Part shown: positions 1 through 23,300 of the stretch, in pieces
Layout of the letters: each line of letters starts with the position of its first letter
How positions within the stretch are numbered: the first letter of the stretch is position 1
Source: Mustelus asterias
Lineage: Eukaryota
DNA length: 64,000 bases
Direction of reading: 5' to 3'
NCBI RefSeq assembly: GCF_964213995.1
Contig: NC_135824.1
Span: forward strand, 52,762,001 to 52,826,000
The notes under the pieces: generated by a model
Database searches by the model: none
Told to the model about the DNA's origin: nothing
The model's input: the letters and a program-made list of their open reading frames with translations, nothing else
Program-made: the position numbers and the translations under genes

Positions 1-191
1 TCTATGTGGGATCTTACTGCGCAAACATGTAGCGCAATCACCTGGATTACAGAAATGAGTACACTTCAACAGAGATGATGCCTTTGCTGTGATAACCGTG
101 GCGTTGAACCAGTGTCACACAAACTCCCGACTACATTCGTTCAGAAAGTTGCACAGGTGTTGACCTAAGAATGACGCAGAGGGCGTTAAGA

Positions 192-527
192 AGATTTTAT
201 GTGAGCTTGTGGCAGCTTTGTACCGTTGTGCTTTAGTTGCGACGCAGAAATAGGTCGCAAAGTCTGTCAGGCTGGGACTGTTCAGTTGCAGGGTGAAGTT
301 GTTGCTCCCAGCATCAAGTTGGGTGGCGAAACGCGGCTGGAAATCGGGCCCACAGCCACCGTATCCGCTGCAAATCCACTCTATGGTGGCTCCCTGCTCC
401 CTGTACCAGAACATTGTGTAAGAGCCCTTACTATCTCCTACCAAATTGCAGAACAGACTAAGGGCCTGTCACGGTCTGAAAGAAGCCGCAGGTGGGAACT
501 GGGCTACGATGGGTGCCGCCCGAACCC
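192..527 (-). pseudogene. V1: Ig/TCR V segment pseudogene, di-cysteine CDR2 family (V exon 231-527, RSS 192-230)
   Basis: Acceptor tttag at 528; reads (G)VRAAPIVAQFPPAASFRP*QALSLFCNLVGDSKGSYTMFWYREQGATIEWICSGYGGC...DFATYFCVATK with in-frame TGA at 469-471; degenerate RSS cacaacg-23bp-ataaaatct. Confidence 0.88.
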
Positions 528-2201
528 CTAAAGCAGATTTAAAGAAAGAAAAACGGCTTAGAACAGTCGAATGATGCAGAAAAGAGGCCTTTCGGCCCAT
601 CATAATATACTTAGTTCTTTGAAATTGCCATCAAATTACTCTCACCCTCCGTCTTTTGCACGTAGCCCTGAAAATCCCCTCAACTGCGTATCTATTCCAT
701 TTATAACTTTATTACGTCTTGCAGTCATTAATAAATTCGCGTAATTCACCGTATTTCGCTGTTGGCAGGGAATATTTGAGGCGAAAACACTTACAATACA
801 TCCAGTGCGCCACCAAAAAGCTGAGGAAGATGACGGGCATTCTAGGTGAGAAATCTGTTGCCTTTCTGATGAGGTAACAAGGAAGGATAATGAGTTACCA
901 GTAAAATGACCCCATTCAACGGAAATGCAACCGGATGCAATCGAACTGCGCCTGAAGATCGGCCAACCAATCGTGTGCCTGGGCCACACAGGTCAGCAGT
1001 TTGAGCACATAAGGACCATATCATTTGCTTCTGCTTGTTATTTTGCGAAATCGTGGGTCAGCACAGAAGGCGATCCCCGATATCAGAGGGTCACTTCCGG
1101 CCTGGCAGTGTAAGCAATGTTTGTCTCTCAATGTATCGCTCGGAAGGAAAATATTAGCTGGGCTTTGCATTGGTTAATTGTGGGTTCTTCCTCTGTAGAT
1201 GCAGGCTGCCGCCCTTCCTTCACTACAGTGTTGTATGAACTTTCAAAACATAGCAGCAAAGCACATAGAACAGAGAAAGTGCACGAGCTTCTTGCTTGAT
1301 GCAGAGAGGTATTGAACACAAAAGCGGGAGATTGCAAAAAAATATTTATAAAGTTCTCATTGGCCAATATCTAGATTATTGTGTCCAGTTCCGGTCGCCA
1401 GAATTTAGGACGGATGTCAGAGTCTTTGAGAAGACGTAGAGGGGGCTTATAACAATTGTTCCGGGATGAGGAAATTTCACTACAAAGTTAAATTGGAGCA
1501 TCTCGGATTGCTGTCCTTGGAATGAAGGGGATTGAAGAGAGATCTGACCAAAATGAGGACAGGTTAAGATACGATCGACAAAGGAAACGTACTCCCGGGT
1601 TAGGTGGATTGGCCGAGCAAAATTGTCCCTTCATGTCAGGAAGACTAGCGAGGGTAAATGTATGCGGTTATGGGGATAAGGACTGGGTGGGATTGTGGTG
1701 AGTGCAGACTCGATGGGCCCAATGGCTCACTTCTGCACTGCAGGATTCTATGATTCAATGTTCTATGATTAGCTGATGGTTCGAGAACGCGGGAACGCAG
1801 ATGCAACACTTTTTTTTGCGAGGGTGCAGTTACAGCGGGATTATGAGGAGAAATGCTATGGCGCAGCGGATGGTAATAGGTTGGAACACGCGGCCTCCAG
1901 GGTGGTTGAAACTGAGACAATCAACTCAAAAGAAATCGAGTTGACACTGAAGGGGAGTACAATGCAGAGCTACAGGGATATTGCGGGGGAATGGATCTAA
2001 TGAGCTTGTTCTGGAGAGCCAGTGTAGATTTGATGGGAGGAATAGTCGCCTTTTGTGCCGGAATGACCTGTGATTAGCACGCTGCAAAGATGAGCCGTCT
2101 TGGAAAGGTAACGTTTCTACACAAATAGAATCTCGCTCATTCTCTTACTGAGCTTTGCATATCACGCCGGTGGGTTTGAACGCATCTGGGAATGGTGTGG
2201 A

Positions 2202-3741
2202 CGTTTTTGTATTAGTCTGCAGGAGGGCTGTGCCTCTGTGTTAAACTAGCTGCGCAGTAATAGGTTGCCGAGTCTATCAGCTTGGAGTCTCTCAGCTGGA
2301 GGTTCAAGCGGTTGTTGGTGGGGTCATGTTGCACCGCGAAGCGCTGCTCAAAAGCTGTGTCACAGCTGCCGGATTCACGGCACATCCACTCTATTGTCTT
2401 CCCCTGCTGCCTGTACCAATGCAATGTGTAGCTGCTTATGCTGGCTCCCTCCAACCAGCAGCTCAATTCGAGAGGCTGTTCCTGTAAAATAGCGGCCGCG
2501 GCTGGAGACTGGAGCACAGTGGGTGCAGCCCAAACCCCTGGAATAAATTTTAAGGACAATTAGATTAGAAGCAGATCTTTAAAACGTTAACAGGCAATTG
2601 TAGAATTTGTCAGTAGAGAAGGAGACGATTCGGCCAATAACATCGACAAGAACTGCCTATTAGGACTGTGGGCCTAATGGCTACACGACTATAAGACCAT
2701 AAGACATAGGAGCAGAATTGGGCCACTCTGCCCATCGTGTGTGCTCCGCCAATCAACCGTGACTGTTATTTCTCTCATCCCCATTCTCCTGCCTTTTCCC
2801 CATAACCCCTGATCCCCTTATTAATCAAGAACCTGAACCCTCGGGACACGGGAGCAAATCCTAGCACGTCAGTTTTTTTTCGGAACTTCAATGAATAAAT
2901 ATTATTCACTTCAAATATATATGGAAAGGAAAGATAGTCTCAATAATTGTTGCCATTCGAGCATTGGTGATTGTTGATAGAAACCTATTTTGTTCCCGCT
3001 GAGTCGGAAATGCAGCCAGCATAATCAAGGACCCCACGCAGCACGGACATACACTCTTCCACCGTCTTCCGTCGGGAAAAATATACAAAAGCCTGAAAAC
3101 ACTCACCAACAGACTCAAGAACATTTTTTTCCATGCGATCATCAGACTTTTTTGAATGGTCCTATCATATATCAAGCTGATCTTTCTCTTCATCCTACCT
3201 GTAACTGCAACATTATATTCTGAGCATGTTCCTTTCCTTGTCCCCTATGTACTCTACGAACGATATGTTTTGTCTGTATGGCGCGAAATATTGTAACCCA
3301 ATATATGTTACAATAATAATCAAATCAAATCAATGCTCCTCAGGGAAGGAAATCTACCGGCCTCACCTGGCCGGGCCTGCATGTGACTCTGGATCCAGGA
3401 TATTTGACCCTACTGCTCTCAAGACAAGTTGGGATGGGCAACAATCGCCTGCATGGCGAGCGGCAACCGAATTCCATGAAATCATTTAAAAGGCCAATTA
3501 CGCTAATTTGCCGCAGTTCTGACCCAATGCCCTCCGAATCCGCCCCTTCCACACCTGTGAGCATTGATGCAATTTCGTTTCGAAAACGTATATGGAATAT
3601 GCGACCCATTTGAGCATAATTTCTATTCCCCGCTTCCACTGTTGGTAAAAAAATAGATTTCGCCAACCAGCACTTACAACCAATCCAGTGTCCGAGAGAA
3701 AAGGTGACCAAGATTGTGGCAGTTTCGGCTGAGATTGCCAT
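2202..3741 (-). CDS. V2: apparently functional V segment, di-cysteine CDR2 family (probable leader 3678-3741, V exon 2241-2537, 23-RSS 2202-2240)
   Basis: Open V exon with C23, WYRQ and DSATYYCAAS; RSS cacagag-23bp-acaaaaacg; candidate 64-nt phase-1 leader MAISAETATILVTFSLGHWIG with gtaagt donor (leader assignment less certain). Confidence 0.85.
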
Positions 3742-5831
3742 CGCCTTTCTCAGGAGCTGAGGAACAGAGGCACTTAACGATAAGACGGCGCTTGTGAAAT
3801 TACTCGTCTGGCATTACAAATGCCACAAGTTATGACGAACTGAACCGAATACTTGGTTGGCCAATCATGTGGCTGAATAACACATTGTCGGCAAATAGAA
3901 CACACGGGGATCATTTCCGCTGGGAGCACTGTTTCTTTTGCAAGTTTTTCCATGTCCCCCTTCCCTGCTTTTTCTCGTTCCTACATCATTCCTTGTCTTC
4001 CTTTCTCCTCCTTTCCACCTACTATCGCCTTATTGATCATCGTTCAGAGATGAATCCATTCAGTAGTCAATGAGCATGCGTGGCGCAGCATTGCCATCTG
4101 TTGCTTTAGAGGCTGTGTGAGGCTGAGGAAACACAGCACACCAATCTCGCAATTGTTACGTTCAGAGCACGTCTACGGGCAGTGCATCTGTCGGGTGAAT
4201 GCACTTGCATCTTTATCCAGCAATTCTTTTTGTTCTGCGATTGACACTTACTCGGATTGCCAAGGACTTCTCCCACAGGAAACATGTGTTAGGCTTTGGA
4301 AAGGCCGTATTGCTCTGGCAAACGTATTTAAGAACGGAGGGAGATAGACAACAGGGGACCACAGGCCAGTTAGCCTGACACCTGTTATTGGAGAAATCCT
4401 GCGATTTACAGAAACATAATGGCATCAAGCAGCGTCTGCGCGGTTTTGTAAAACAAAGTTTCGTTTGACAAATGTATGAGTTATTTGAGGATGTGAGGAC
4501 GAGCAAAGTGGATAAAGGGCAACCACTAGACGTAGGGTGTTTTGATTTCGAAAAGTAATTCCATAGGTGCCGCAAATAAAATGTCCGCACAGCAGAACAG
4601 CTCATGTTGTTGTTTACTTTCTCTCTGCTGCGTTTATTTATTGCTTTATCCGTCTTAATTATCTTTCGTTGCAGCTGGACGGGAACAATGCAGGGTCCTG
4701 CCATGAGCACTTACTTTTGACGTAGATTCTGTTTAATTATTTGTGCAGGTGTCACAAGTGGGGAGGCGATGGCCTCGTGGTATTTTCGCAAGACTCTTAA
4801 TCCAGAAACTCAGCTCATGGTCTGGTGGACCGGGTTCGAATCCCGCCACAGCACAATTTGAATTCACTAAAAAAATCTACTGATGGCCCTGAAACGATTG
4901 TCGGAAAACCCACCTGGTTCACTAATGTCCTTGAGGGAAGGAAATTTACCTTTCTGACATTTAAGTGACTCCAGAGCCATATGGTGGACTCTCCAATGCC
5001 CTCCAAGGACACCTGTAAATGCTGACCCAGCCAGCGACGCTCATGTCCCACGAATAAATAAAAAAATCCGCTCGCCCTGCCAAAGCGCCAAATGTATTAT
5101 TTAACCGGTCCGACCCCTATATTGCCTTTTCGCACCCATGCCCCGCTTCACTGGCTCAAAACCTATTCCAGCCCTAACATTTCCCAGCGTGTTTTTGAAA
5201 CTCAAGCTATCTTTGATCTGGAGCCCGGGTTTCAAACCCGGAGGGTATCGGAAATTTCGAGCATGCGGATAATGGTTGTGAACTGCGCATGCGTAGAGCC
5301 GCTTTCTAACTTTCTTTGGGGACCGGTGCACCTTTGTATAACAATGAACCGTGCGGAGATGGGGCAGGGAGAGAGCCCAAAACAAAGTCCCAGGTAGGGA
5401 TAGAGACTGGGGATAGAAACAGATCCTGACGAAGCTACAGCAAAACGAAGGAGCAGAGAAACAGCTATGAGTAACAGCTTTTAAGGGACGTGGGCTTGAA
5501 AGAAGCTCGGATGATCAAAGATTAATCAAGAGAAGGTCTGAAGGTCCAACAGGTAGCTGAAGTTTGATTACTCCATTGGGGCAGATGTAACCCTTTTTGG
5601 AGAAGTTGTGTTTTGCTTGGCACAGCGGAAGATCAGGATCTGGGGTGTGAAATTGGTGTTTGAGTGTAGACTGGCGAATTCACTGGAATGGAATCTTGAG
5701 TTGGGATTGAAACCTGCAAAACGAATTGTCCTTGAAGCTGCCCAAATGCGAGCGAATCTTGGAGAGAATGCCCAAGGCAAGATCTTCAAATGTGTAGATT
5801 GGGAGCCGACACGAGAGAAGCTGACGATGAG

Positions 5832-6170
5832 GGCGGCACGGTAGCACAGTGGTTAGCACTGCTGCTTCACAGCTCCAGGGTCCCGGGTTCGATTCCCGGC
5901 TCGGGTCACTGTCTGTGTGGAGTTTGCACATTCTCCTCGTGTCTGCGTGGGTTTCCTCCGGGTGCTCCGGTTTCCTCCCACAGTCCAAAGATGTGCGGGT
6001 TAGGTTGATTGGCCAGGTTAAAAATTGCCCCTTAGAGTCCTGGGATGTGTAGGTTAGAGGGATTAGCGGGTAAATATGTGGGGGTAGGGCCTGGGTGGGA
6101 TTGTGGTCGGTGCAGACTCGATGGGCCGAATGGCCTCCTTCTGCACTGTATGGTTTCTATGATTCTTTCT
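5832..6170 (+). mobile_element. HE1-type tRNA-derived SINE, full length, young
   Basis: A/B-box head ggcggcacggtagcacagtggttagcac...gggttcgattcc; ctatgatt tail; atgag flanking duplication; absent from the copy B site at ~22417-22421. Confidence 0.9.
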
Positions 6171-8378
6171 ATGAGTGAGATTGGTTGGCTCGCCGTGCTT
6201 ACTGATGTCTTGGTGGTTTGTTGAGAAATCCACGAACACTGTCTTGGTCGCATCGGCTATTTATGGTATAGGTGTGGAGTTCGACAACAGTTGACAATAA
6301 ACTGTCAACACCGAGGGTCAGCCCACCATGCTCAATCAACCCAACTCACAAATCCCCGGAACACGGGAGAAAACCATTCGCGTGTTTCTAATGTGTCTCC
6401 CCACTGCAGGCGTATGGAACATAAATTGTAATTTTTAAAATCCCTTTGTCCATATGCAGTAACGTTTAATTTTGCAGTTTAAACACCACGGGATCTTTGT
6501 GACTTTATTCACTGAGCAAATGCCTTGAATGTCAAACCTTGTCTACTTTAAACTCAACGTCATTGATCTCTGACTAATAGCCTGGTGGTCTGGCCAATGA
6601 TTGTAACAAGCTGTACAGAGGAAATAGAGGCAGGAGAATGCAATTTGTCTCTCTGAGTATCCCCTGCCATTCCATAAGATAGCAATTGAGAATTCACCAT
6701 ATTGGCATGGAGTTTGAGTCATACGAAGGCCAAAATAGGCAAAATAGACTTTCCTCCGTAAGTAACATTATTGGACCAGACAGGTATTTCACAAACCAAT
6801 AATAGAATAATAAACATTACTGAAATTACCATTATTATGTAGGTTTAAACAATGGAATTCAAATTTGACCAATAGCCTTGGAGGATTTAAACCCTAGTCC
6901 ACCAGAGAATTAGTCTGGGTCTCTGGATTGCCAGACCAGTGATATTATCATCCCACCATCACCTCAAGGTTGCCGCACTGATTACAGGTATGATAGACTT
7001 CAGATTTGTGAATGGCCTTGTTATTTTTCCAGAAGAAAATGTCGAGTGGATACTTGAGGAAATTGTTCAGAAGTGGACAGAGTCGATCAGAAGATATTAT
7101 ATCCCCCAAGTTCAAGGGCTATTCGGGATGGAAAACAGTCGCCCATATCCCATCAAAGAATCAACCTGTACCATCTCCAATGCCTTCATATCTTTTTCAA
7201 CCTGTTTGCCCAAGATTGGACAGAGCAGTCCAAAAGAAGCCAAAAATCTTCTAGATATTACTTATTCCTTGTCTGGACAATCAGTTCCTTTGTCGTTAAG
7301 CGGAAGAATAGGTCGAACTTTTTGGAAATTGTGCTTTTAAGATATTTGAGTACCAGCGGAGGTTTCCGGTTCGTTTGTTTATCATTAACCTGGAACCTCT
7401 CCTCAGTAGCGCTCGTTACACGCATTGAGACTTCAACCAATATGCTTCTGGCCAGGAGTGTAAATGATACCAACTGAGCCACGGTTGACCCTCAGAGTTA
7501 GCAATGTATAGGATTAATGGGCATTCCAACGTCCATTTGCAAGCACGGCCGGGTGCCGGGTGATTTGATAGAAGCTCCCCATTCTTCCAAGAAGGAGGCC
7601 ACGAGATCCATCGTTCCCGAATTATCCATTCTCCCTTATTACTTTTCTGAAAAGTAACTGCTTATGGAATCATAGAATTACAGAATCCCTACAGTGCAGA
7701 AGGAGGGCATTCAGCCCATCAGTTCTGCACCGACCACAATCCCACCCAGACCCTATCCCCATAACCCCATGCATTTACCCAAGCGAGTCCCCCTGACACT
7801 AAGGGGCAATTGAGCATGGCCAATCCACCTAACCCGCACATTTTTGGACTTCACGATGTATCTGATTCAATAGTGAACGCGAGTGTTAATTTCACGCAGT
7901 AGAGTTACATCAAAACCATCCCTTTCCTAATAAAAGACCCTCATTATTGTAAATAACTTTCGTTCTTATATTTTCCCTGCTTTGGGAAAAGCAATCCCAG
8001 TTCCGCTAGTCTCTCCATGTAACGAAAGATGCTTCACGCTGGTACCTTTCTGATCAATACCCCTTACTTTAAGCAGAATAATTGCATCTTCTCATATCTA
8101 ACCAGCTAACTGACATGACTGGTAACATTCCGGGAAATCTCTTCTGCTCTTCTACTCTTTCTGTCGTTCCTTCCTAGTTTGTTAAATTCTGGCTTGCTTT
8201 CGTTCTTTCTTTCTATTTTTCGTCCACACTTCCCTGCACTGCTTCTTTCTTTCAATCTTTCCAGCTTTAATCTGTCGTTTTCACGCTCTCCTTGTTAAAA
8301 GGGCACGCAGTCTGTAAAATAAACCCACACTGACGCAATGGTTTCATTCACAAGTGTTTCCTGTTGCCTTTGTTCAAC

Positions 8379-8946
8379 AGTTTTTGTTGAACTGTTCCAT
8401 CTCTCTGAGTCACTGTGAAGACTCCAGGCGCAATAATACACGGCCGAATGATTCACCCGCAGGCTGGAGATTCCAGGTTGAACTCGGAGCCAGTCGGTCG
8501 CTTGGCGGTGAAACTGTCCACTGTCCCCTTTGGATTCACGTCTTGCACAACTGCGGAGTGAAACATCAACTGGGGCTCCTTGCCGGGGTGTTGCCTGTAC
8601 CAGAACCTCCTACCAGCGGTGCTGCCCTCCACGGTGCATTTCAGATCCACTCCGTCCCCGGGATGTTTCGAGACAGCAGCGGGAAACTGGAGGAAATTCT
8701 CTGAGTTCACGCCTGAGTAAAGTACGGGGAGAGAAAGAAGTCAATAAGCAGAGACATTCCCGTAGTGGGGAGAGCGAAAAGGGAATGAATGATAAGGGCG
8801 ACAAAGGCAACAGAGAGACAGAAAGTGAGGAAGATGGAGGGTGGGGGGGGGGGGGGGGGGGGGGGGGGGAGGGGGGGGGGAGCACGAATTTCTGAGTAAA
8901 TATTCTTACAATGAAATAAAATCACCAAGCCCAGGACCAGGTACAT
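8379..8946 (-). pseudogene. TRBV: V3: TRBV30-like V pseudogene (leader 8910-8946, V exon 8418-8712, RSS 8379-8417)
   Basis: 37-nt leader MYLVLGLVILFH; 1-bp deletion in FR3 near 8469 frameshifts before YYCAWS; RSS cacagtg-23-acaaaaact. Confidence 0.9.
8839..8880. repeat. Poly-G tract in the V3 leader intron (interrupted version at 25069-25123)
   Basis: Direct observation. Confidence 0.9.
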
Positions 8947-9078
8947 CTTTTGCTTGACACCTCCCGCCGAATAACGGAAGAAATTAATCCAGGAGCGCTG
9001 AGTCTGGTGAGGAGCCAATCAGGTGTTCTAAACCACTGAGGAAACGATCAAGATCGCAAGGTAATGAGGACCATTTCG

Positions 9079-9105
9079 ACACGCCCCTTCCAACCAATCA
9101 AAATT
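9079..9105 (-). promoter_or_regulatory. Putative V promoter module (GGGCGTGT Sp/KLF box plus CCAAT box) ~110-180 bp upstream of the leader ATG; similar motifs at ~13763 (Sp/KLF box only), ~35468-35497, ~37808-37836, ~45624-45650
   Basis: acacgccc/acacgcct followed by ccaatc recurs upstream of V3, V5, V6 and V8 while flanks differ. Confidence 0.55.
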
Positions 9106-9239
9106 TATATAATTGATAATTTCCTATTGCCCTTCCTATATTTGCTACGCAAATGCAATTAAACCCAACTTCATAATAGCCAGAAGTGTATTTACCGATT
9201 TAATTATATTTGGATCGTTTCCATTTGATCGTATGGGCA

Positions 9240-9520
9240 GCACGTTGGCACAGTGGTTAGCACTGCTGCCTCACAGCGCCAGGGACCCGGGTTCGATTCC
9301 CGGCTTAGGTCACTGTCGGTGTGGAGTTTGCACGTTCTCCCCGTGTCTGCGTGGGTTTCCTCCGGGTGCTCTGGTTTCCTCCCACAGTCTGAAAGACGTG
9401 CTGGTTAGGTGCATTGACCCGAACAAGCGCCGGAGTGTGGCGACTGGGGGAATTTCGCAGTAACTCCATTGCAGTGTTAATGTAAGCCTTACTTGTGACG
9501 AATAAATAAACTTTAACTTT
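9240..9520 (+). mobile_element. HE1-type SINE (alternative-tail subfamily); paralog ~25490-25760
   Basis: tRNA-like head plus ...gtaagccttacttgtgacgaataaataaac tail; ends approximate. Confidence 0.8.
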
Positions 9521-9527
9521 AAAATAC

Positions 9528-9800
9528 GTAACAGTTTCGATGGGCTGAATGGCTTTGCTTGTTCCGATGGAACTGGCTGGGGGGGATGCTCTTGAGATTG
9601 GTTGAATTACATTGGTCTTCCGTGTAACAGCCTCGGGAAGGGCTAAACGTCTCCCCCCTTTTCCTTTGTATCAGGCTCGATTGGGGATGCATGGTCACCT
9701 CCTCTTCCTTTGTAACAAGTTCGAGGGGCTGAATGGCCTCACCCTCTTCCTTGGTAGCAGGCTCGAGAGAGAGAGCTTGAGTAGCCTCATCCTGATCCGT
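9528..9800 (+). repeat. Degenerate ~45-bp tandem repeat (gtaacagcctcgaggggctgaatggcctcctcctgttcc); also ~25770-26040, ~40340-40480, ~45770-45940, ~53540-53720
   Basis: Repeated units resembling the CR1 3' terminal motif. Confidence 0.65.
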
Positions 9801-11094
9801 CGACATACGTTTTCAGTCACTGAAGTCTCTGCTTGTCAAAGAACGCCCCTTTCTCTCCCTGTGGGGAAAGAAACCGCTGGCAGTGGATCAAGAGAAAATC
9901 TTGTGTTATTCTCCCCTTCTTTCTATGTACCATTTGGTCATTGGTTCATTCTTGCCTTGTCCCTTTGCTTCTTCCTAACTTTCCTCCCTGCTTAAGCAAG
10001 TCGTTTTGTCCATCTCATTAGTAACGCACAACTGGATTGTAGAATTTCTAACACATTCCTCCTCCTAATGGACGAGGAGTGACATTTCTAAGTGACATTT
10101 AAAAAATAACTGGAAACACTCAGCAGGTCAGGGAGTCTCTGTGGAGAGAAAAACCGAGTTAATAGTTCAGACCAGTGACATTTCATCAGAACTGATATTT
10201 CTTTCTCCCTCATCTGGTTATCCGGCTCCACAAATCATTAAAAACCAATAGGACAAAAAGGATCATGAAATGTTTTCCAAAGATAAATTTTGCATCCAGG
10301 AAACTGGAATACAGTTCCAAAATGGAGGAAGTCCTACTTGAGTTGTTACAGAACTCCGGGCAGCTGGAACACCTCGTTCAGTTTTAAGCAGCACATTTAG
10401 CAAAGGTGATTGGGGCTTAGAGAGAATGCACAGTGGAATATACTGAATAATTTTGGGGCTTAAAGAGTTAAATCATGAGGACAGTTCATAAAAGGTTGCC
10501 TGCACTCCGCTGAGTATAAAGAATTAAGGAGTGAACTCATTTAGTTATTTTTAGCCCGTTTCAAAATGGTTGATAATGTGGAAATAACAATATAATTTCC
10601 TGTGGTGCAGTCGTCCAGATCAAAGACGGATAATCCCAAAATTAAAGACAACGTCTTCAGACCATAACACCTGGGGAAACGAAAAGTTTAAAATTTATTT
10701 ATGATGTGGAGATGCCGGTGTTGGACTGGGGTGGTTAGAGCAAAAAGTCTCACAACACCAGGTTAAACTCCAACAGGTTTATTTGGAATCAAGAGCTCTC
10801 GGAGTGCTGCTCCTTCCTCAGGTGAATGTTGATATGCGCGATCTTCTTGGAGGTCCTCTCCTCTTTGAGACGGCGGTTTGCCGTGTCAGTAGTAGCCATG
10901 ATGTGGGGATGCCGGCGTTGGACTGGGGTGGGCACAGTAAGAAGGCTCACAACACCATATTAAAGCCCAACAGGTTTATTTGGAATCACGAGCTTTCGGA
11001 GCGCTGCTCCATCCTCAAGTGAGTGACACACTCACTTTGACTCTAACCTGGTGTTGTGAGACTTCCTAAAGTTTAATTGTGAGCGTTACAAATA

Positions 11095-11366
11095 TTAACT
11101 CTGCAATGAAGTTACTGTGAAAACCCACTAGTCGCCACACTCCGGTGCCTGCTTGTGTACACAGAGGGAGTATTTAGCATGACCAATGCACCTTAACCAG
11201 CACGTCTTTCAGACTGTGGGAGGGAAGCGGAGCACCCGGAGGAAACCCACGCAGACTCGAGAAGAACGTGCAGACTCCACACAGACAGTGACTCAAGCAC
11301 GGGAATCGAACCCGAATCCCTGGCGCTGTGAGGCAGCAGCGCTTGTCACTGTGCCAAGGTGTGCCG
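11095..11366 (-). mobile_element. HE1-type SINE; paralog ~27310-27575
   Basis: Reverse complement of the SINE head and body; ends approximate. Confidence 0.75.
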
Positions 11367-12057
11367 TTCAAATTCAAATGATAATTCTGAATTTGAAAGC
11401 TACTGTCAGTAATGGTGCCCATGAAACTATCACGGTATATTGTAAATACCCACCTGGTTCACTAATGTCCCTGTAGGGAAGGAAATCTGCCGTCCTCACG
11501 ACCGACACGTCACTCCGGATCCACAGCAATGTGCTTGACTTCTAACTGCGCTAATGGTCTATCAAGCCCATCATTTCAAGGGCAATTAGTTATGGGCAAC
11601 AAATCCTGACCTTGCCGTCGGCACCCACATTAAACCAAATATTTAAAAAAACGTCTTTATTCAAAAGGTAGTGGAAGTGTGGAACATCCACCAGATACAT
11701 CACTGTCTTATGCTCACGGTTTCCTCAATGATTTGTGATGAAGAGTTAAACGGACTCGAAACGTTAAATATTTTTCTCTCACGACAGATGCTGCCAGACC
11801 TGCTGAGGCTTCCCAGCTTTCTCTGTTTTGCTCCTGAACTATTTGTTTTGCTCAGAATCAAATTCACCCACACGTGGAAACCAGCTCCCTCTGCTGACTG
11901 AATTTGCTCACTCCCTCAGCAACAGGATGTACTGAAATTCGACTGCAGCAGCATATCCTTCTATTTCTCTCTTCCACGTGTCTTTATGCAACTTCTCCTG
12001 AAAAGCAAATACGCTACTCACCCCAATCCAACTTCGAAGCAGCGAGGTTCGCAATCC

Positions 12058-12780
12058 ACATTCTTAAGAGTATTGATAGGCAGAGGGAACTGGGTGTACA
12101 GGTACACAAGTCACTGACAGTGGCAACGCAGGTGGAGAAGGTAGTCAAGCAGGCATACGGCATGCTTGCCTTCATCAGTCGGGTCATTGAGTTTAAAAAT
12201 TGGCAAGTCATGTTGCAGCTTTATAGAACCTTCGTTAGGCCGCACTTGGAATATAATGTTCAATTCTGGTCGCCACGTTACCAGAAGGATGTGGAGGCTT
12301 TGGAGAGGGTGCAGAAAAGATTTATCAGGATGTTGCCTGGTATGGAGGGCATTAGCTATGACGAGAGGTTAGAGAAACGTAGGTTGTTCTCACTGGAACG
12401 ACGGAGGTTGAGGGGCGACCTGAGAGAAGTGTACAAGATTATGAGGGGCATGGACAGATGGATAGTCAGAAGCTTCTTCCCAGGGTGGAAGAGTCAATTA
12501 CTAGGGGGAATAGGTTTAAGGTGCGAGGGGCAAGGTTTAAAGGAGGTGCACGAGGCAAGTGTTTTACACAGAGGGTGGTGGATGCCGGGGGAGGTAGTGG
12601 AACGAGATACGAAAGTGACATTTATGGGACGTCTTGACAAATACATGAATAGGATGGGAATAGAGGGATACGGTCTCCAGAAGGGTAGGGGGTTTTATTT
12701 CAGCCGGGCAGCATGGTGGGTGCAGGCTTGGAGGGCCAAAGGGCCTGTTCCTGTGCTGTAATGTTTTTGATCTTCGTTCT
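12058..12780 (+). mobile_element. CR1-type LINE 3' fragment; paralog ~28276-28997
   Basis: ...LYRTFVRPHLEYNVQFWSPRYQKDVEALERVQKRFIRMLPG...LFSLERRRLRGDL, typical CR1 ORF2 C-terminus plus 3' UTR. Confidence 0.88.
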
Positions 12781-13106
12781 TTGTTGTAAAAACAATTTCT
12801 ACACAATTCCCAGTTAAATGTATGAATGCCGATCTTTTATTTATGAGGCCTTGTGTTGGTCTTTCACTAAAGTGAAAATATGATCCCTCTGTCTAATCCA
12901 TTCAACCTCCAAATTATCTATCAGGTCCACTTCAAACTTCTCTTCAGTCGAAACGAATATGGGCAGTCTTCCCAATAAGTTACAATCCCTCAGTTCTGGT
13001 AACCCTTGACTTTTATTGTCAATAACATGTTCACTCGACAAGACAACATGGTGAGGCGAATCACCGCGCAGAGTTGTCAGCGAAAGCTGTTTCCTGCTGC
13101 CTTTGG

Positions 13107-13621
13107 GGTTTTTGTTGAGCTGCTCCATCTCTCTGAGCCACTGTGACTACTCCAGGCGCAGTAATACACGGCCGAGTGATTCGCCAGCAGGCTGGTGGCA
13201 TTCAGCTTGAACTCATTGATATTCGGTCTCACGGCGGTGAAGCCGTCCATCGTCCCTTCTGATTTCACGTTTTGTGCAGTTATAGAATAAAACATCAGCT
13301 GCAGCCCCCTGCCCGGAAATTGTCTGTACCAGTACATGTTACCGCTACTGGCTCCCTTAGCGTCACAATCCAATTTCACTCCATCCCCAACGAGTTTGGA
13401 GACAGCGGCGGGGGTCTGATCGATCTGCACTGAGTTCACATCTGGAAAAGAAATGGGGTGGGCAGGAGGTTAATAAATATTGAAATTCTGGTGGTGAAAC
13501 AGCAAAAGGAAATAAAAGAAAACACTTGAGGGAGAAGGAAAGGAAATCATGAGAGATTGTTGTCCAGAGAAAAACATGACTTACATTGAAATAACACCGC
13601 GAGGCCTAGTAACACATACAT
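13107..13621 (-). CDS. TRBV: V4: functional TRBV30-like V segment (leader 13585-13621, V exon 13146-13441, RSS 13107-13145)
   Basis: Leader MYVLLGLAVLFQ, gtaagt/ccag splice sites, open exon ending YYCAWSS, consensus RSS cacagtg-23-acaaaaacc. Confidence 0.93.
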
Positions 13622-14355
13622 CTTTAATGTTAACCTTTTGTTGTGTTCGAAAAATATGCGGTAAAACTAGAGACCAGTAGTCTGGTGAGTCAACCCGGCG
13701 TCTGTCAAATCATTGAGAAAACCTGAAGGGCCAAAGGGAACCCCACCCTCCCTGGCAGAAAGACACGCCCTATTTCTATGATTCGCTGAAAGTGGGAGCA
13801 GGAAATGCCAAAAGGGGCAGAAACAAATGAAGCGAGTGTGCAAAGAAAACGGATAAAATATGAGCGAGAGATTCAGCAGGTCTGACAGCACCTATGGAGA
13901 GAGAATAGGGCCAACGTTTCGTGTCTGGATGTCACCATCGTCCGCTCTGAAAAAGGGCAATCCAGGCTCGAAACGTTGGTTCTATACTCTCTCCGCAGAT
14001 GCGGTCAGGCCTGCAGAAATTATCCAGCATTTTCTGCTTTTGTTTCAGATTCCAGCATCCGCAGTATTTTCCCTTTGGACAAAATGTGACATCGCCCTAA
14101 GCAATTTAGAGTGGCGCATCTTCTAACTGGCGAGAGGATCTGTGGCGAAGGAAAAGAATTCAGCGCCCTAATTAACTAAAACCAGGCAGGCCTGGACAAA
14201 AAGGAATTCAAATTCTAATCGAATGCTCGCATTTGCGCCACGGAAACTGGGATATCAATGCGGCGAAGTTTCCTTAAATTGTAACTGAACTCTAGAACAC
14301 TGGGCTCAGATCTGGGAAGGCACATCCAAACCAACGACATAACACCCACATCCAG

Positions 14356-14645
14356 GGGCGGCACGGTGGGCACAGTGGTTAGCATTGCTTCCTCACAGCG
14401 CCGGGGTCCCAAGTTGAAATCGCGGCTTGGGTCACTGTCTATGTGGAGTTTGCACGTTCTTCCCGTGTCTATCTGAGTTCTCTCTGGGTGCTCCGGTTAC
14501 CGCCCACAGTCCGAAAGATGTGCTGGTTCGGTGTATTGGACATGCGAAATTCTCTCTCAGTGTACCCGAACAGGCGACGGGTGGATTTTCACAGTAACTT
14601 CATTGTAGTGTTAATGTAAGCCTACTTGTGACACTAGTAAATAAA
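14356..14645 (+). mobile_element. HE1-type SINE; paralog ~30638-30925
   Basis: ggggcggcacggtgggcacagtggttagc head; ends approximate. Confidence 0.75.
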
Positions 14646-15199
14646 GAAGGATGTAGGGATTGCTAGGAAGGATTGCAAAATAGATTCACCAGCATGATAT
14701 GGGGGCTTGTTTTACAATCCCGGGCGTCGCTGACAAGGGCACGAAATGTTGCGCATCCCGAATTGCCCTTAAAAAGTGAGTGGTATTCCAGAGGGCAGTT
14801 AAGAGTCAACCACATTGATCTGACGTCAAATGCTTTTACAATAATCGACAATTATTCCGCGGTCACCATTACTTAGACCGGCTTTCAATTCCAAACTTCG
14901 TTTTTTGTTAATTCAATTCAAATTCCATTGGCTGGGAAGGTGAGTCCTGAACATTGCCCGCAAGAGCCCGAACTGCTGCACTAGTCGCCCAGTGACAGTA
15001 ATACTACACCACGGGCTGCACCGACATCAACCAAGAAATCATAAAGACAAGTTCCTTCAGCTTGTCTGCCTTCCCTTGTGTTCAGGAGGTTGAGGGAGGG
15101 GTGAACTGATTTGCATTTTTAGTATTTTAGAAGGAGAATTTGAGGTCAACTGAATAATGTACTGCAGAGTTGGGAGACAGCACCATACACTGTCACAAT

Positions 15200-15518
15200 T
15201 AGAATCATAGAAACTCTACAGTGCAGAAAGAGGCCACCTGGCCCTTCGAGTCTGCACCGACCACAATCTCACCCTGGATCTACCCGCTAATCCCTCTAAC
15301 CTCCGCATCTCAGGACATTTAGGGGCAATTTTAGCATGGCCAATCAACCTAACCCGCACATCTTTGGACTGTGGAAGGAAACCGGAGCACCCGGAGGAAA
15401 TCCATGCAGACACGAGGAGAATGTACAAACTCCACACAGACAGTGACCCAAGCTGGGAATCGAACCCAGGTCCCTGGAGCTGTGAAGCAGTAGTGCTAAC
15501 CACTGTGCTACCGTGCCG
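15200..15518 (-). mobile_element. HE1-type SINE; paralog ~31483-31821
   Basis: Full SINE on the minus strand; ends approximate. Confidence 0.8.
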
Positions 15519-15654
15519 CAATAAGGGCCGAACCATTCAGAGGGGAGGTCACGAAACATTCCTTCACACAAACGGTAGGGGAATTCTGGAACACTTTCCC
15601 CCACAGAGAATGGTCGAAGGCTGATGCTCAATTGGACATTTCAAGACTAAGATT

Positions 15655-15885
15655 CATAGAAGAAATCATAGAAACCCTACAGTGCAGAAGGAGGCCATTC
15701 GGCCCATCGAGTCTGCACCGACCACAATCCCACCCAGGCCCTACCCCCACATATTTTACCCACTAATCCCTCTAACCTACGCATCCCAGGACTCTAAGGG
15801 ACAATTTTTTAAACCTGGCCAATCAACCTAACCCGCACATCTTTGGACTGTGGGAGGAAACCGGAGCACCCGGAGGAAACCCACG
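15655..15885 (-). mobile_element. 5'-truncated HE1-type SINE present only in copy A
   Basis: Absent at the paralogous site ~31951-31960. Confidence 0.8.
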
Positions 15886-16789
15886 CTGGTATAGGTTTCT
15901 TGGTTAGTGCGTTGAAAAATGTGGGCTAAAGGTGAGCGAGTATCGATCAGCTATGATCTCATTGTAAAGCATTGCGGTAATGTCACTCGACTGGTAATCC
16001 AGAGCTTAATGTTCCTCGGGATATGGGCCCATATCCAACCACGGCAGTTGGTGAAATTTCAATACAATACATTAGTACCTATCTGGAACCGTGAGCAAGG
16101 AAACATCAAGCTGATTGCCACCTACTGCCAGCAACCCACTCTGCAATGATAAATCAATTCTCATCCATGTCGGAATGTCTGTTGGCATTCTCAGTCTGGC
16201 AAGAGCGCTCACTGCAACCTGGATGGGGATTTTCAAATCCCAGCAACATTGCAGCTTGGTAGCACCTTCATTGGCCCAATCGGAAAGATCATAGCTGATA
16301 GGCTGAAGCTGCAAGAGGTGTTGAGAGGACCAATAAGAGAGCCAAGCCTATTCGACTTAATCCTTACCAAGTCACAATACTAATGGATTGCAAAAAGATC
16401 TGGTGGATCAAAACAGAGCATCCATGAGGCATGGTGGGTCACCGGCAGCAGTAGAATGCTGCCGGTGTAGGGTGCTATGGCTTGCTGAACTGTGCATGAG
16501 AAAGCTTGGTGGGAGTGCAGTGCTGAGGTGTCACTCCCTACGTACCAAAATGTCCAGTGAAATGTTTTCACCTTTAATGAACACGAGTAAAGAGTTGCTC
16601 TATGTGGGATCTTCCTGCGCAAACATGTAGCGCAATCACCTGGATTACAGAAATGAGTACACTTCAACAGAGATGATGCCTTTGCTGTGATAACCGTGGC
16701 GTTGAACCAGTGTCACACAAACTCCCGACTACATTCGTTCAGAAAGTTGCACAGGTGTTGACCTAAGAATGACGCAGAGGGCGTTAAGA

Positions 16790-17125
16790 AGATTTTATGT
16801 GAGCTTGTGGCAGCTTTGTACCGTTGTGCTTTAGTTGCGACGCAGAAATAGGTCGCAAAGTCTGTCAGGCTGGGACTGTTCAGTTGCAGGGTGAAGTTGT
16901 TGCTCCCAGCATCAAGTTGGGTGGCGAAACGCGGCTGGAAATCGGGCCCACAGCCACCGTATCCGCTGCAAATCCACTCTATGGTGGCTCCCTGCTCCCT
17001 GTACCAGAACATTGTGTAAGAGCCCTTACTATCTCCTACCAAATTGCAGAACAGACTAAGGGCCTGTCACGGTCTGAAAGAAGCCGCAGGTGGGAACTGG
17101 GCTACGATGGGTGCCGCCCGAACCC
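16790..17125 (-). pseudogene. V1-B: duplicate of V1 pseudogene (V exon 16829-17125)
   Basis: Identical to V1, including the TGA at 17067-17069 and the degenerate RSS. Confidence 0.88.
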
Positions 17126-18791
17126 CTAAAGCAGATTTAAAGAAAGAAAAACGGCTTAGAACAGTCGAATGATGCAGAAAAGAGGCCTTTCGGCCCATCA
17201 TAATATACTTAGTTCTTTGAAATTGCCATCAAATTACTCTCACCCTCCGTCTTTTGCACGTAGCCCTGAAAATCCCCTCAACTGCGTATCTATTCCATTT
17301 ATAACTTTATTACGTCTTGCAGTCATTAATAAATTCGCGTAATTCACCGTATTTCGCTGTTGGCAGGGAATATTTGAGGCGAAAACACTTACAATACATC
17401 CAGTGCGCCACCAAAAAGCTGAGGAAGATGACGGGCATTCTAGGTGAGAAATCTGTTGCCTTTCTGATGAGGTAACAAGGAAGGATAATGAGTTACCAGT
17501 AAAATTCAACGGAAATGCAACCGGATGCAATTGAACTGCGCCTGAAGATCGGCCAACCAATCGTGTGCCTGGGCCACACAGGTCAGCAGTTTGAGCACAT
17601 AAGGACCATATCATTTGCTTCTGCTTGTTATTTTGCGAAATCGTGGGTCAGCACAGAAGGCGATCCCCGATATCAGAGGGTCACTTCCGGCCTGGCAGTG
17701 TAAGCAATGTTTGTCTCTCAATGTATCGCTCGGAAGGAAAATATTAGCTGGGCTTTGCATTGGATAATTGTGGGTTCTTCCTCTGTAGATGCAGGCTGCC
17801 GCCCTTCCTTCACTACAGTGTTGTTTGAACTTTCAAAACATAGCAGCAAAGCACATAGAACAGAGAAAGTGCACGAGCTTCTTGCTTGATGCAGAGAGGT
17901 ATTGAACACAAAAGCGGGAGATTGCAAAAAAATATTTATAAAGTTCTCATTGGCCAATATCTAGATTATTGTGTCCAGTTCCGGTCGCCAGAATTTAGGA
18001 CGGATGTCAGAGTCTTTGAGAAGACGTAGAGGGGGCTTATAACAATTGTTCCGGGATGAGGAAATTTCACTACAAAGTTAAATTGGAGCATCTCGGATTG
18101 CTGTCCTTGGAATGAAGGGGATTGAAGAGAGATCTGACCAAAATGAGGACAGGTTAAGATACGATCGACAAAGGAAACGTACTCCCGGGTTAGGTGGATT
18201 GGCCGAGCAAAATTGTCCCTTCATGTCAGGAAGACTAGCGAGGGTAAATGTATGCGGTTATGGGGATAAGGACTGGGTGGGATTGTGGTGAGTGCAGACT
18301 CGATGGGCCCAATGGCTCACTTCTGCACTGCAGGATTCTATGATTCAATGTTCTATGATTAGCTGATGGTTCGAGAACGCGGGAACGCAGATGCAACACT
18401 TTTTTTTGCGAGGGTGCAGTTACAGCGGGATTATGAGGAGAAATGCTATGGCGCAGCGGATGGTAATAGGTTGGAACACGCGGCCTCCAGGGTGGTTGAA
18501 ACTGAGACAATCAACTCAAAAGAAATCGAGTTGACACTGAAGGGGAGTACAATGCAGAGCTACAGGGATATAGCGGGGGAATGGATCTAATGAGCTTGTT
18601 CTGGAGAGCCAGTGTAGATTTGATGGGAGGAATAGTCGCCTTTTGTGCCGGAATGACCTGTGATTAGCACGCTGTAAAGATGAGCCGTCTTGGAAAGGTA
18701 ACGTTTCTACACAAATAGAATCTCGCTCATTCTCTTACTGAGCTTTGCATATCACGCCGGTGGGTTTGAGCGCATCTGGGAATGGTGTGGA

Positions 18792-20331
18792 CGTTTTTGT
18801 ATTAGTCTGCAGGAGGGCTGTGCCTCTGTGTTAAACTAGCTGCGCAGTAATAGGTTGCCGAGTCTATCAGCTTGGAGTCTCTCAGCTGGAGGTTCAAGCG
18901 GTTGTTGGTGGGGTCATGTTGCACCGCGAAGCGCTGCTCAAAAGCTGTGTCACAGCTGCCGGATTCACGGCACATCCACTCTATTGTCTTCCCCTGCTGC
19001 CTGTACCAATGCAATGTGTAGCTGCTTATGCTGGCTCCCTCCAACCAGCAGCTCAATTCGAGAGGCTGTTCCTGTAAAATAGCGGCCGCGGCTGGAGACT
19101 GGAGCACAGTGGGTGCAGCCCAAACCCCTGGAATAAATTTTAAGGACAATTAGATTAGAAGCAGATCTTTAAAACGTTAACAGGCAATTGTAGAATTTGT
19201 CAGTAGAGAAGGAGACGATTCGGCCAATAACATCGACAAGAACTGCCTATTAGGACTGTGGGCCTAATGGCTACACGACTATAAGACCATAAGACATAGG
19301 AGCAGAATTGGGCCACTCTGCCCATCGTGTGTGCTCCGCCAATCAACCGTGACTGTTATTTCTCTCATCCCCATTCTCCTGCCTTTTCCCCATAACCCCT
19401 GATCCCCTTTTTAATCAAGAACCTGAACCCTCGGGACACGGGAGCAAATCCTAGCACGTCAGTTTTTTTTCGGAACTTCAATGAATAAATATTATTCACT
19501 TCAAATATATATGGAAAGGAAAGATAGTCTCAATAATTGTTGCCATTCGAGCATTGGTGATTGTTGATAGAAACCTATTTTGTTCCCGCTGAGTCGGAAA
19601 TGCAGCCAGCATAATCAAGGACCCCACGCAGCACGGACATACACTCTTCCACCGTCTTCCGTCGGGAAAAATATACAAAAGCCTGAATACACTCACCAAC
19701 AGACTCAAGAACATTTTTTTCCATGCGATCATCAGACTTTTTTGAATGGTCCTATCATATATCAAGCTGATCTTTCTCTTCATCCTACCTGTAACTGCAA
19801 CATTATATTCTGAGCATGTTCCTTTCCTTGTTCCCTATGTACTCTACGAACGATATGTTTTGTCTGTATGGTGCGAAATATTGTAACCCAATATATGTTA
19901 CAATAATAATCAAATCAAATCAATGCTCCTCAGGGAAGGAAATCTACCGGCCTCACCTGGCCGGGCCTGCATGTGACTCTGGATCCAGGATATTTGACCC
20001 TACTGCTCTCAAGACAAGTTGGGATGGGCAACAATCGCCTGCATGGCGAGCGGCAACCGAATTCCATGAAATCATTTAAAAGGCCAATTACGTTAATTTG
20101 CCGCAGTTCTGACCCAATGCCCTCCCAATCCGCCCCTTCCACACCTGTGAGCATTGATGCAATTTCGTTTCGAAAACGTATATGGAACATGCGACCCATT
20201 TGAGCATAATTTCTATTCCCCGCTTCCACTGTTGGTAAAAAAATAGATTTCGCCAACCAGCACTTACAACCAATCCAGTGTCCGAGAGAAAAGGTGACCA
20301 AGATTGTGGCAGTTTCGGCTGAGATTGCCAT
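18792..20331 (-). CDS. V2-B: duplicate of V2 (probable leader 20268-20331, V exon 18831-19127, RSS 18792-18830)
   Basis: V exon identical to V2; same RSS. Confidence 0.85.
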
Positions 20332-23300
20332 CGCCTTTCTCAGGAGCTGAGGAACAGAGGCACTTAACGATAAGACGGCGCTTGTGAAATTACTCGTCTG
20401 GCATTACAAATGCCACAAGTTATGACGAACTGAACCGAATACTTGGTTGGCCAATCATGTGGCTGAATAACACATTGTCGGCAAATAGAACACACGGGGA
20501 TCATTTCCGCTGGGAGCACTGTTTCTTTTGCAAGTTTTTCCAAGTCCCCCTTCCCTGCTTTTTCTCGTTCCTACATCATTCCTTGTCTTCCTTTCTCCTC
20601 CTTTCCACCTACTATCGCCTTATTGATCATCGTTCAGAGATGAATCCATTCAGTAGTAAATGAGCATGCGTGGCGCAGCATTGCCATCTGTTGCTTTAGA
20701 GGCTGTGTGAGGCTGAGGAAACACAGCACACCAATCTCGCAATTGTTACGTTCAGAGCACGTCTACGGGCAGTGCATCTGTCGGGTGAATGCACTTGCAT
20801 CTTTATCCAGCAATTCTTTTTGTTCTGCGATTGACACTTACTCGGATTGCCAAGGACTTCTCCCACAGGAAACATGTGTTAGGCTTTGGAAAGGCCGTAT
20901 TGCTCTGGCAAACGTATTTAAGAACGGAGGGAGATAGACAACAGGGGACCACAGGCCAGTTAGCCTGACACCTGTTATTGGAGAAATCCTGCGATTTACA
21001 GAAACATAATGGCATCAAGCAGCGTCTGCGCGGTTTTGTAAAACAAAGTTTCGTTTGACAAATGTATGAGTTATTTGAGGATGTGAGGACGAGCAAAGTG
21101 GATAAAGGGCAACCACTAGACGTAGGGTGTTTTGATTTCGAAAAGTAATTCCATAGGTGCCGCAAATAAAATGTCCACACAGCAGAACAGCTCATGTTGT
21201 TGTTTACTTTCTCTCTGCTGCGTTTATTTATTGCTTTATCCGTCTTAATTATCTTTCGTTGCAGCTGGACGGGAACAATGCAGGGTCCTGCCATGAGCAC
21301 TTACTTTTGACGTAGATTCTGTTTAATTATTTGTGCAGTTGTCACAAGTGGGGAGGCGATGGCCTCGTGGTATTTTCGCAAGACTCTTAATCCAGAAACT
21401 CAGCTCATGGTCTGGTGGACCGGGTTCGAATCCCGCCACAGCACAATTTGAATTCACTAAAAAAATCTACTGATGGCCCTGAAACGATTGTCGGAAAACC
21501 CACCTGGTTCACTAATGTCCTTGAGGGAAGGAAATTTACCTTTCTGACATTTAAGTGACTCCAGAGCCATATGGTGGACTCTCCAATGCCCTCCAAGGAC
21601 ACCTGTAAATGCTGACCCAGCCAGCGACGCTCATGTCCCACGAATAAATAAAAAAATCCGCTCGCCCTGCCAAAGCGCCAAATGTATTATTTAACCGGTC
21701 CGACCCCTATATTGCCTTTTCGCACCCATGCCCCGCTTCACTGGCTCAAAACCTATTCCAGCTCTAACATTTCCCAGCGTGTTTTTGAAACTCAAGCTAT
21801 CTTTGATCTGGAGCCCGGGCTTCAAACCCGGAGGGTATCGGAAATTTCGAGCATGCGGATAATGGTTGTGAACTGCGCATGCGTAGAGCCGCTTTCTAAC
21901 TTTCTTTGGGGACCGGTGCACCTTTGTATAACAATGAACCGTGCGGAGATGGGTCAGGGAGAGAGCCCAAAACAAAGTCCCAGGTAGGGATAGAGACTGG
22001 GGATAGAAACAGATCCTGACGAAGCTAAGGCAAAACGAGGGAGTAGAGAAACAGCTATGAGTAACAGCTTTTAAGGGACGTGAGCTTGAAAGAAGCTCGG
22101 ATGATCAAAGATTAATCAAGAGAAGGTCTGAAGGTCCAACAGGTAGCTGAAGTTTGATTACTCCATTGGGGCAAATGTAACCCTTTTTGGAGAAGTTGTG
22201 TTTTGCTTGGCACAGCGGAAGATCAGGATCTGGGGTGTGAAATTGGTGTTTGAGTGTAGACTGGCGAATTCACTGGAATGGAATCTTGAGTTGGGATTGA
22301 AACCTGCAAAACGAATTGTCCTTGAAGCTGCCCAAATGCGAGCGAATCTTGGAGAGAATGCCCAAGGCAAGATCTTCAAATGTGTAGATTGGGAGCCGAC
22401 ACGAGAGAAGCTGACGATGAGTGAGATTGGTTGGCTCGCCGTGCTTACTGATGTCTTGGCGGTTTGTTGAGAAATCCATGAACACTGTCTTGGTCGCATC
22501 TGCTATTTATGGTATAGGTGTGGAGTTCGACCACAGTTGACAGTAAACTGTCAACACCGAGGGTCAACCCACCATGCTCAATCAACCCAACTCGCAAATC
22601 CCCGGACCACGGGAGAAAACCATTCGCGTGTATCGAATGTGTCTCCCCACTGCAGGTGTATTGAACATAAATTGTAATTCATTTAATCCCTTTGTCCATA
22701 TGCAGTAACGTTTAATTTTGCTGTTTAAACACCACCGGATCTTTGTGACTTTATTCACTGAGCAAATGCCTTGAATGTCAAACCTTGTCTACTTTAAACT
22801 CAACGTCATTGATCTCTGACTAATAGCCTGGTGGTCTGGCCAATGATTGTAACAAGCTGTACAGAGGAAATAGAAGCAGGAGAATGCCATTTGTCTCACT
22901 GAGTATCCCCTGCCATTCCATAAGATAGCAATTGAGAATTCACCATATTGGCATGGATTTTGAGTCATACGAAGGCCAAAATATGCAAGGGTGTTAGACC
23001 TTCCTCCGTAAGTAACATTATTGGACCAGACAGGTATTTCACAAACCAATAATAGAATAATAAACATTACTGAAATTACCATTGTTATGTAGGTTTAAAC
23101 AATGGAATTCAAATTTGACCAATAACCTTGGAGGATTTAAAGCCTAGTCCACCAGAGGATTAGTCTGGGTCTCTGGATTGCCAGACCATTGATATTATCA
23201 TCCCACCATCACCTCAAGGTTGCCGCACTGAATACAGGTATGATAGACTTCAGATGTGTGAATGGCCTTGTTATTTTTATAGAAGAAAATGTCGAGTGGA

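Follow-up and report, generated by a model that had tools for sequence, protein, structure and literature searches.

Sharks use V segments of the immunoglobulin heavy chain (IgH) on the T-cell receptor (TCR) delta chain (PMC12227049), and shark IgH V, TAILV and NAR-TCR V segments serve TCR delta or alpha chains from within the complex of TCR alpha/delta (TRA/D) or in linkage with it (PMC12227049, PMC6795676). Whether an Ig-like V segment has also been taken up by TCR beta is the question raised by two V segments, V1 and V2, at one end of a 64,000-nucleotide stretch of the Mustelus asterias genome (contig NC_135824.1, called C24 below, positions 52,762,001 to 52,826,000; hereafter the window). 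Each carries two extra cysteines with five residues between them (C-x5-C) at a short second complementarity-determining region (CDR2), and an earlier note on this DNA had suggested an Ig-like V lineage used on TCR beta, with a disulfide-stapled CDR2 and a non-classical ligand. Our analysis points to a different ancestry. We put at about 0.68 the probability that V2 is an intact TCR-beta V segment with V1 as its dead paralogue, that the family is the shark branch of an old V lineage with a long CDR1 and a three-residue CDR2 which includes trout TRBV6, and that the cysteines form a disulfide, as predicted, at CDR2.

The two extra cysteines, their spacing and the motifs quoted for them are present in both segments, which are otherwise as divergent as had been said (~50% identity). 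V2 has what a TRBV segment has: a leader exon, an open V exon with Cys23, Trp41 and Cys104 (40.3 bits against the V-set domain PF07686) and, on its 3' side, a recombination signal sequence (RSS) with a 23-bp spacer. The leader exon is kept upstream of the copies V2a, V2b and V2c, and the V2 intron, enlarged by repeats, measures 1.1 kb. V1 of the window is a pseudogene, because it has a poor RSS and an in-frame TGA at 469-471, which was overlooked when both segments were first taken for V genes. The shared orientation of the signals holds, with 23-bp spacers on the minus strand in both, but the V1 RSS is degenerate; and leader exons at 795-840 (V1) and 3678-3741 (V2) show that the extent of 192..2537 first assigned to the pair was too short.

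The surroundings of the family are those of a TCR-beta locus. We surveyed C24 from 200 kb below the window to 80 kb above it and found, on the plus strand, a D segment (C24:52670260-52670312) with the core GGGACAGGGGG and a 3' 23-RSS, followed by eight J motifs with 12-bp spacers wherever the RSS is readable, and by a C1 exon at C24:52685861 and a transmembrane (TM) exon with the conserved Lys; the whole D-J-C unit spans 52670260-52690640. Reptile TRBD is reported to have an identical core (PMC11754216). The C exon aligns with a TCR-beta-type C, that of the sole protein P0145 (37%, E 7e-19), whose beta label is our own reading of a sequence named 'Ig lambda-like' in the database; it does not match the TCR-alpha C found in P0113 (E 0.06). 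No further D, J or C was found in C24:52826001-52906000, and this TCR-beta unit is the sole D-J-C found within ~200 kb below and 140 kb above; the locus of the V1/V2 family thus has a D-beta, J-beta and C-beta, as that of TRBV segments does. The V2 RSS is 94 kb from D, the D-J-C is on the opposite strand, and the V segments found 3' of C are all on the minus strand. Since V2 stands in this 3' block, inverted relative to D-J-C, RAG would join it to D-beta and J-beta through inversion, in the way of 3' inverted TRBV elsewhere in vertebrates; the 3' TRBV of amniotes (human TRBV30 type), which likewise lie 3' of C-beta in opposite orientation, are reported to be joined by inversion (PMC11754216). 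The resulting beta chain would be expected to pair with TCR alpha. Most neighbours in the block end in CAWS, and we take them to be TRBV30-like, whereas the C-x5-C family is a separate lineage in the same block.

The family is confined to such loci as far as our genome search reached. Among its 150 best protein matches, all of which were scored, there are 12 family copies (eight on C24, two on C22, one each on C69 and C73), all of them in TRB loci, and none in an IgH or TRA-D contig. C24 holds four V2 copies, three fully open and one with a stop right after CAAS, together with three full-length V1 copies, of which two have the TGA and one, outside the window at C24:52746211-52746504, is open with the same poor RSS as window V1; the eighth copy is a truncated V1. 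One broken V2 and one broken V1 are found on C22, and the copies on C69 and C73 both bear stops; on C22 and C69 the family is again in the inverted block. Both extra cysteines are kept in every copy in which that region is present. The pattern W..C-x5-C occurs in 5 of the 80 non-redundant V sequences that were left from 93 genome candidates after near-copy removal, and all five are family members.

Outside this species, the protein GCB66420 of the catshark Scyliorhinus torazame is an open homologue, 57% identical and with both cysteines, the sole true member among the best 150 matches in a set of 1.84 billion representatives. It groups with the C69 copy (support 100/90) in the 77-row tree described below. 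Word-limited searches for homologous proteins gave no matches with V2 or, at longer lengths, with the family alignment, where a rearranged shark beta chain could hide behind another cluster representative, and three proteins with the catshark protein. An alignment of V2, V1 and the catshark protein has 37 invariant columns out of 93; as two given columns would both be invariant ~16% of the time, the conservation of the cysteines is modest evidence of selection.

The phylogenetic check of heavy-chain V segments (VH) against TCR V segments, which the first proposal had called for, went against an IgH origin. In a tree of 55 genome rows (the 80 non-redundant sequences minus 25 thinned from crowded clades) the family stood apart as a clade of its own (100/99); kinship with VH could not be rejected, nor could kinship with TRBV. 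Ranking database matches with a family profile reveals relatives nearer than VH, namely V domains of paddlefish, gar, bowfin, turtles and songbirds, and also of eels, tarpon, anchovy and sole. A second tree has 77 rows, 44 from the genome and 33 from outside, with the group labels of unnamed rows taken from motifs and RSS and with named TAILV and NTCR-V sequences outside its sampling. Here VH is monophyletic (100/99) with the family outside it, as it also is when the CDR2 columns are dropped under a mixture model. The family itself (100/92) has as its sister, at 87/59, the teleost TRBV6-like segments together with a single paddlefish V, and all of them fall within a short-CDR2 clade of 21 rows (92/93); the union of family and TRBV6-like segments stands at 95/88 with the CDR2 columns dropped and the mixture model, in a run whose bootstrap had not fully settled. 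The nearest relatives are thus teleost TRBV6-like Vs and short-CDR2 Vs of alpha/delta type.

Identities and profile scores run the same way. Mean identity of the family is 38.7% to teleost TRBV6-like, 32.8% to alpha/delta-type, 31.3% to VH and 25.5% (lowest but one) to conventional TRBV sequences. For each of the six family rows, both short-CDR2 profiles outscore the VH profile (83.5 and 78.5 bits against 70.9 bits for V2), and the gar V P0087 finds the V2 copies as its best genome matches (67.5 bits; next family 59.8). The distance from IMGT 54 to the conserved Arg is 12 residues in the family as against 15-17 in 12 VH rows, that is, the family does not have a CDR2 of VH length. The heavy-chain-like Trp at the Kabat-47-like position is present as claimed but is not diagnostic of IgH, because in the 77-row alignment it is also found in 2 of 10 TRA/D rows, 2 of 4 light-chain V (VL) rows and 5 of 9 short-CDR2 alpha/delta-type Vs. 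Structure and broader searches gave no further discrimination: a fold search against 48,161 chains returned generic V domains only (Z 8.7-9.8) with no class signal, PDB sequence searches returned mostly multi-domain antibodies, and feature searches of the Atlas were topped by TCR gamma/alpha clusters at a non-discriminating 0.95-0.96.

Two other identities were considered and dropped. Shark TRGV rows group in a separate clade and gave the lowest scores, which speaks against a TCR-gamma identity. NAR-TCR V segments come with a V-D-J cassette of their own ahead of a supporting V-delta; no D or J lies near V1 and V2, the nearest D being the D-beta described above.

A TCR-beta V with a short CDR2 is already known from trout, namely TRBV6 (TRB1V6-1 in IMGT), reportedly first described in salmonids by Boudinot in 2002. 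Salmonid TRBV6 has a nine-residue CDR1 and a three-residue CDR2, is expressed but scarce, and possibly has an unusual mode of recognition (PMC10464911). The trout genomic sequence (PMC10464911, supplement 3, translated by eye) contains SM.SYTM.WYRQ and PVEFL.KEY, as do sole and eel database proteins, which we treat as TRBV6-like because of these common motifs at CDR1 and framework region 2 (FR2) and at FR2 and CDR2. In fused gene models, teleost TRBV6-like Vs alternate with ordinary TRBV domains, and for one of them, P0145 of sole, the gene model includes a TCR-beta-type C. The shark family resembles salmonid TRBV6 in its TCR-beta locus, its three-residue CDR2-IMGT, its long CDR1 (8 residues, 9 in trout; shark lengths by light-chain alignment, in IMGT numbering), the motif xMxSYTMxWYRQ and the CAAS end. 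It differs in being expanded by tandem duplication, while the salmonid gene is single-copy and has two introns in its V exon, in its position in a 3' inverted block, and in having Trp rather than Phe at IMGT 52. Common descent with teleost TRBV6 is the reading we favour; the sister position (87/59, 95/88) is to stand-in proteins, other placements pass the test of alternative trees described below, and the reciprocal genome searches are mixed.

The short-CDR2 alpha/delta-type Vs (bowfin XP_066577245, gar, paddlefish, turtles, songbirds; Atlas clusters TVA4/TVAZ2) have in common with the shark family the 13-residue Cys-Trp gap, a 12-residue stretch running from IMGT 54 as far as the conserved Arg, and the best profile scores. 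Unlike the family they apparently belong to TRA/D, by gene models alone (TRAC in P0113; neighbouring TRAV or VH domains), and they mostly have Tyr, one base away from Cys, at the two cysteine positions (5 of 9 and 8 of 9). A flycatcher V of this type (P0129, UniRef A0A803W207) has cysteines at both positions, apparently independently, and one paddlefish V has a cysteine at the first.

Aligned without gaps, the extra cysteines correspond to I48 and L54 in light chains and to A49 and Y59 in VH. We take them to be IMGT 54 and 67, which flank the three-residue CDR2; CDR2 is thus short, as had been noted, but the cysteines are beside it and not in it. In V-domain structure these two positions are presumably inward-facing cross-strand neighbours, on the C' and C'' strands. 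The AlphaFold model (predicted local distance difference test score, pLDDT, 84.8) has a strand at 48-54 and an isolated bridge at 59, and is compatible with a 53-59 pair. By sequence and model, the pair most likely acts as a disulfide that staples the base of a minimal CDR2 hairpin and not as a ligand contact, since the cysteines flank CDR2. The Cys54-Cys67 bond would take the place of the usual hydrophobic contact and stiffen the minimal CDR2. Because CDR2 would be both minimal and stiff, antigen contact may shift to the long CDR1 and to CDR3, and docking on the major histocompatibility complex (MHC) or an MHC-like ligand would probably be non-standard; standard docking on peptide-MHC has been considered improbable for Vs that have no CDR2 (PMC8559430). 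That the family may have an unusual ligand is suggested by the short CDR2 it has in common with TRBV6 and not by the cysteines.

A number of observations weigh against the descent and the disulfide proposed here. The trees rest on 88-100 columns, the outside rows were picked for resemblance to V2, and trout TRBV6 itself was left out, database proteins serving as stand-ins. The union with the alpha/delta-type short Vs collapses in the CDR2-dropped tree (44/25, 43/55; bootstrap not fully settled), teleost TRBV6-like genes are without both cysteines and 2-4 residues shorter in that stretch, and the carp TRBV6-like P0156 matches VH genes (50.8 bits) slightly above V2 (48.1). Only one of five AlphaFold models is confident, the other four having pLDDT values of 38-63, and the disulfide is predicted only. 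No transcript or rearranged copy of the family was seen among the reads examined, which were of genomic type only: the four read sets over window positions 150-4700 contain no V-D-J joint, but they cover introns as well as exons, as genomic DNA does, and are uninformative on expression. A rival proposal is that a VH- or TAILV-like segment moved early into the shark TCR-beta locus and then lost five CDR2 residues. The best non-family matches, in the genome (38% identity, 48 bits) and in PDB, are VH; the 13-residue Cys23-Trp41 gap and the EW motif are like VH, where other shark TRBV have gaps of 10-12; sisterhood to VH passes the approximately unbiased (AU) test (p=0.46; p=0.37 in the 55-row set); and shark TCR delta does use IgH V. 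The family also resembles shark IgH V, TAILV and NAR-TCR V in the look of its FR1, FR2 and FR3, its CDR1 length and its 23-type spacer. Even so, we consider this origin unlikely: the VH clade (100/99) is without the family in both trees, which sample VH but no named TAILV sequence, the AU test rejects a place among shark IgM-type VH (p=0.037), nearer TCR relatives occur in ray-finned fish, turtles and birds, the Trp is shared beyond VH, and among the 150 best genome matches the family is found only in TRB loci, with a CDR2 stretch 3-5 residues shorter than in the 12 VH rows. What stands of the proposed Ig-like V on TCR beta is the TCR-beta locus, the distance from conventional TRBV and a CDR1 of VH or VL length; the IgH ancestry is not supported.

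A fast-evolving TRBV offshoot restricted to sharks would have come to resemble TRBV6 and the avian short-CDR2 Vs by convergence, with cysteines that only stabilise the fold and an unchanged class of ligand. Resolution in deep V-gene trees is poor, the AU test allows a clade with conventional TRBV (p=0.30; p=0.51 in the 55-row set, where the TRBV-constrained tree is 1.1 log-likelihood units better), short or absent CDR2 arose several times, as in salmonid TRAV3 and bovine TRAV (PMC8559430), and the cysteines are at framework positions. We nonetheless regard such an offshoot as distinctly improbable, as the TRBV6-like link rises when the CDR2 columns are removed, the identity to conventional TRBV is just 25.5%, and the CDR1 length is unlike that of all 20 other shark TRBV rows. 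The breakage of 7 of the 12 copies also fits a little-used family and, together with the weak RSS of every V1 copy, the repeat-swollen V2 intron and the 12 replacement changes against one silent change between V2a and V2c, could suggest a dying relic that is rarely or never rearranged, with frames open due only to recent tandem duplication. This seems very improbable to us: V2b, V2c and V2d have a leader, splice sites, an open frame and a good RSS, the ratio of replacement to silent rates (dN/dS) between V2 and the open V1 copy is ~0.35 (0.31-0.39, a rough estimate with dS near 1), and S. torazame has an open homologue. A single short-CDR2 V lineage may have existed since the first jawed vertebrates, used by sharks and teleosts on TCR beta, by holosteans, turtles and birds on alpha/delta, and serving a conserved unconventional T-cell subset without CDR2 reading of classical peptide-MHC, with a disulfide-locked CDR2 hairpin in sharks that is kept in all three of their TCR-beta loci; we find this extension doubtful, and offer it tentatively.

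Coordinates in the window are collected in the table below. Each ~16-kb tandem unit contains V1, V2 and two TRBV30-like Vs, two further units lie directly below the window, and all 15 V segments of the window are on the minus strand. The copies of one TRBV30-like V at 8417-8704 and 24668-24936 have different frame-breaking deletions in FR3, which argues that the tandem units are real; both copies of that V below the window are open.

Table. Features of the C-x5-C family and its tandem repeat in the window (positions counted from the first nucleotide of the window).
Feature	Position	Strand	Details
V1 degenerate 23-RSS	192..230	-	CACAACG-23-ATAAAATCT
V1 V exon, pseudogene	231..527	-	in-frame TGA 469-471, in FR1
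V1 extra Cys codons	370-372 and 352-354	-	
V1 leader exon	795..840	-	15 codons + 1 base, GTAAGT donor
V2 23-RSS	2202..2240	-	CACAGAG-23-ACAAAAACG
V2 V exon	2241..2537	-	open frame; Cys23/Trp41/Cys104 present
V2 extra Cys codons	2380-2382 and 2362-2364	-	
V2 leader exon	3678..3741	-	21 codons + 1 base, GTAAGT donor; in-frame splice to V exon
Second V1 copy	16829..17438	-	leader ATG 17438, same TGA, RSS heptamer at 16828; V exon 16829-17125
Second V2 copy	18792..20331	-	leader ATG 20331; V exon 18831-19127 identical to V2; 23-RSS 18792-18830
Tandem duplication	1..22421	.	1-5831 vs 16599-22421, 99.4%; 16.6-kb repeat unit

The genome has three TCR-beta loci, at C24:52.56-52.84 Mb, C22:53.03-53.19 Mb and C69:30.42-30.67 Mb, each with a D, 7-8 J and a C; against the C exon of C24, that of C22 has 79% identity and that of C69 52%. 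C22 and C24 are collinear, with ~80% DNA identity, and on C22 many Vs are broken. On C24, CAWS-ending TRBV30-like Vs are massively expanded on either side of D-J-C (C24:52565000-52660000 and 52716000-52838000), and five inverted Vs also lie 5' of D. In the C-beta exon of C24 (C24:52685861; L013:3861-4199) an additional cysteine precedes the first canonical one by five residues; the C22 and C69 exons are without it. On C69 there is a second, inverted D-J-C unit (C69:30597290-30607500, minus strand). Its D core is divergent, it has a single J, its C exon shares just 38% identity with the other C exons, and its TM exon keeps the conserved Lys; the unit faces three inverted Vs, including a C-x5-C pseudogene. 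This arrangement is reminiscent of squamate TCR-epsilon (PMC11754216), and the unit may explain how 3' inverted TRBV arose. The unit and its downstream Vs recur as a 96-99% copy on C73 (C73:7056900-7145000 against C69:30593700-30680000), the similarity ending before the main C-beta and both copies lying near contig ends; a sex-chromosome pair and a haplotig are candidate readings. Long retrovirus-like gag/pol/env open reading frames occupy C73:7067600-7075100, in the region between the TM and C exons, and are absent in the C69 copy.

In the literature searched, whose coverage of key shark TCR work is incomplete so that a prior description is possible, we found no description of a shark TRBV family with a C-x5-C motif; nor did we find there a germline disulfide at the CDR2 base of any TCR-beta V, a link from TRBV6 to avian and holostean alpha/delta-type Vs, or multiple shark TRB loci. 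Six nurse-shark beta V families are mentioned (PMC5931798). The three TRB loci are possibly of greater interest than the C-x5-C family. If our reading of the family is right, trout TRBV6 would be an old TCR V type common to sharks and not a teleost quirk, and the idea that VH segments stay off TCR beta (PMC12227049) would lose an apparent exception. V2 would then offer a concrete gene for asking whether germline-encoded docking of TCR on MHC by way of CDR2 holds universally, and whether T cells of innate-like type date back to the first jawed vertebrates.

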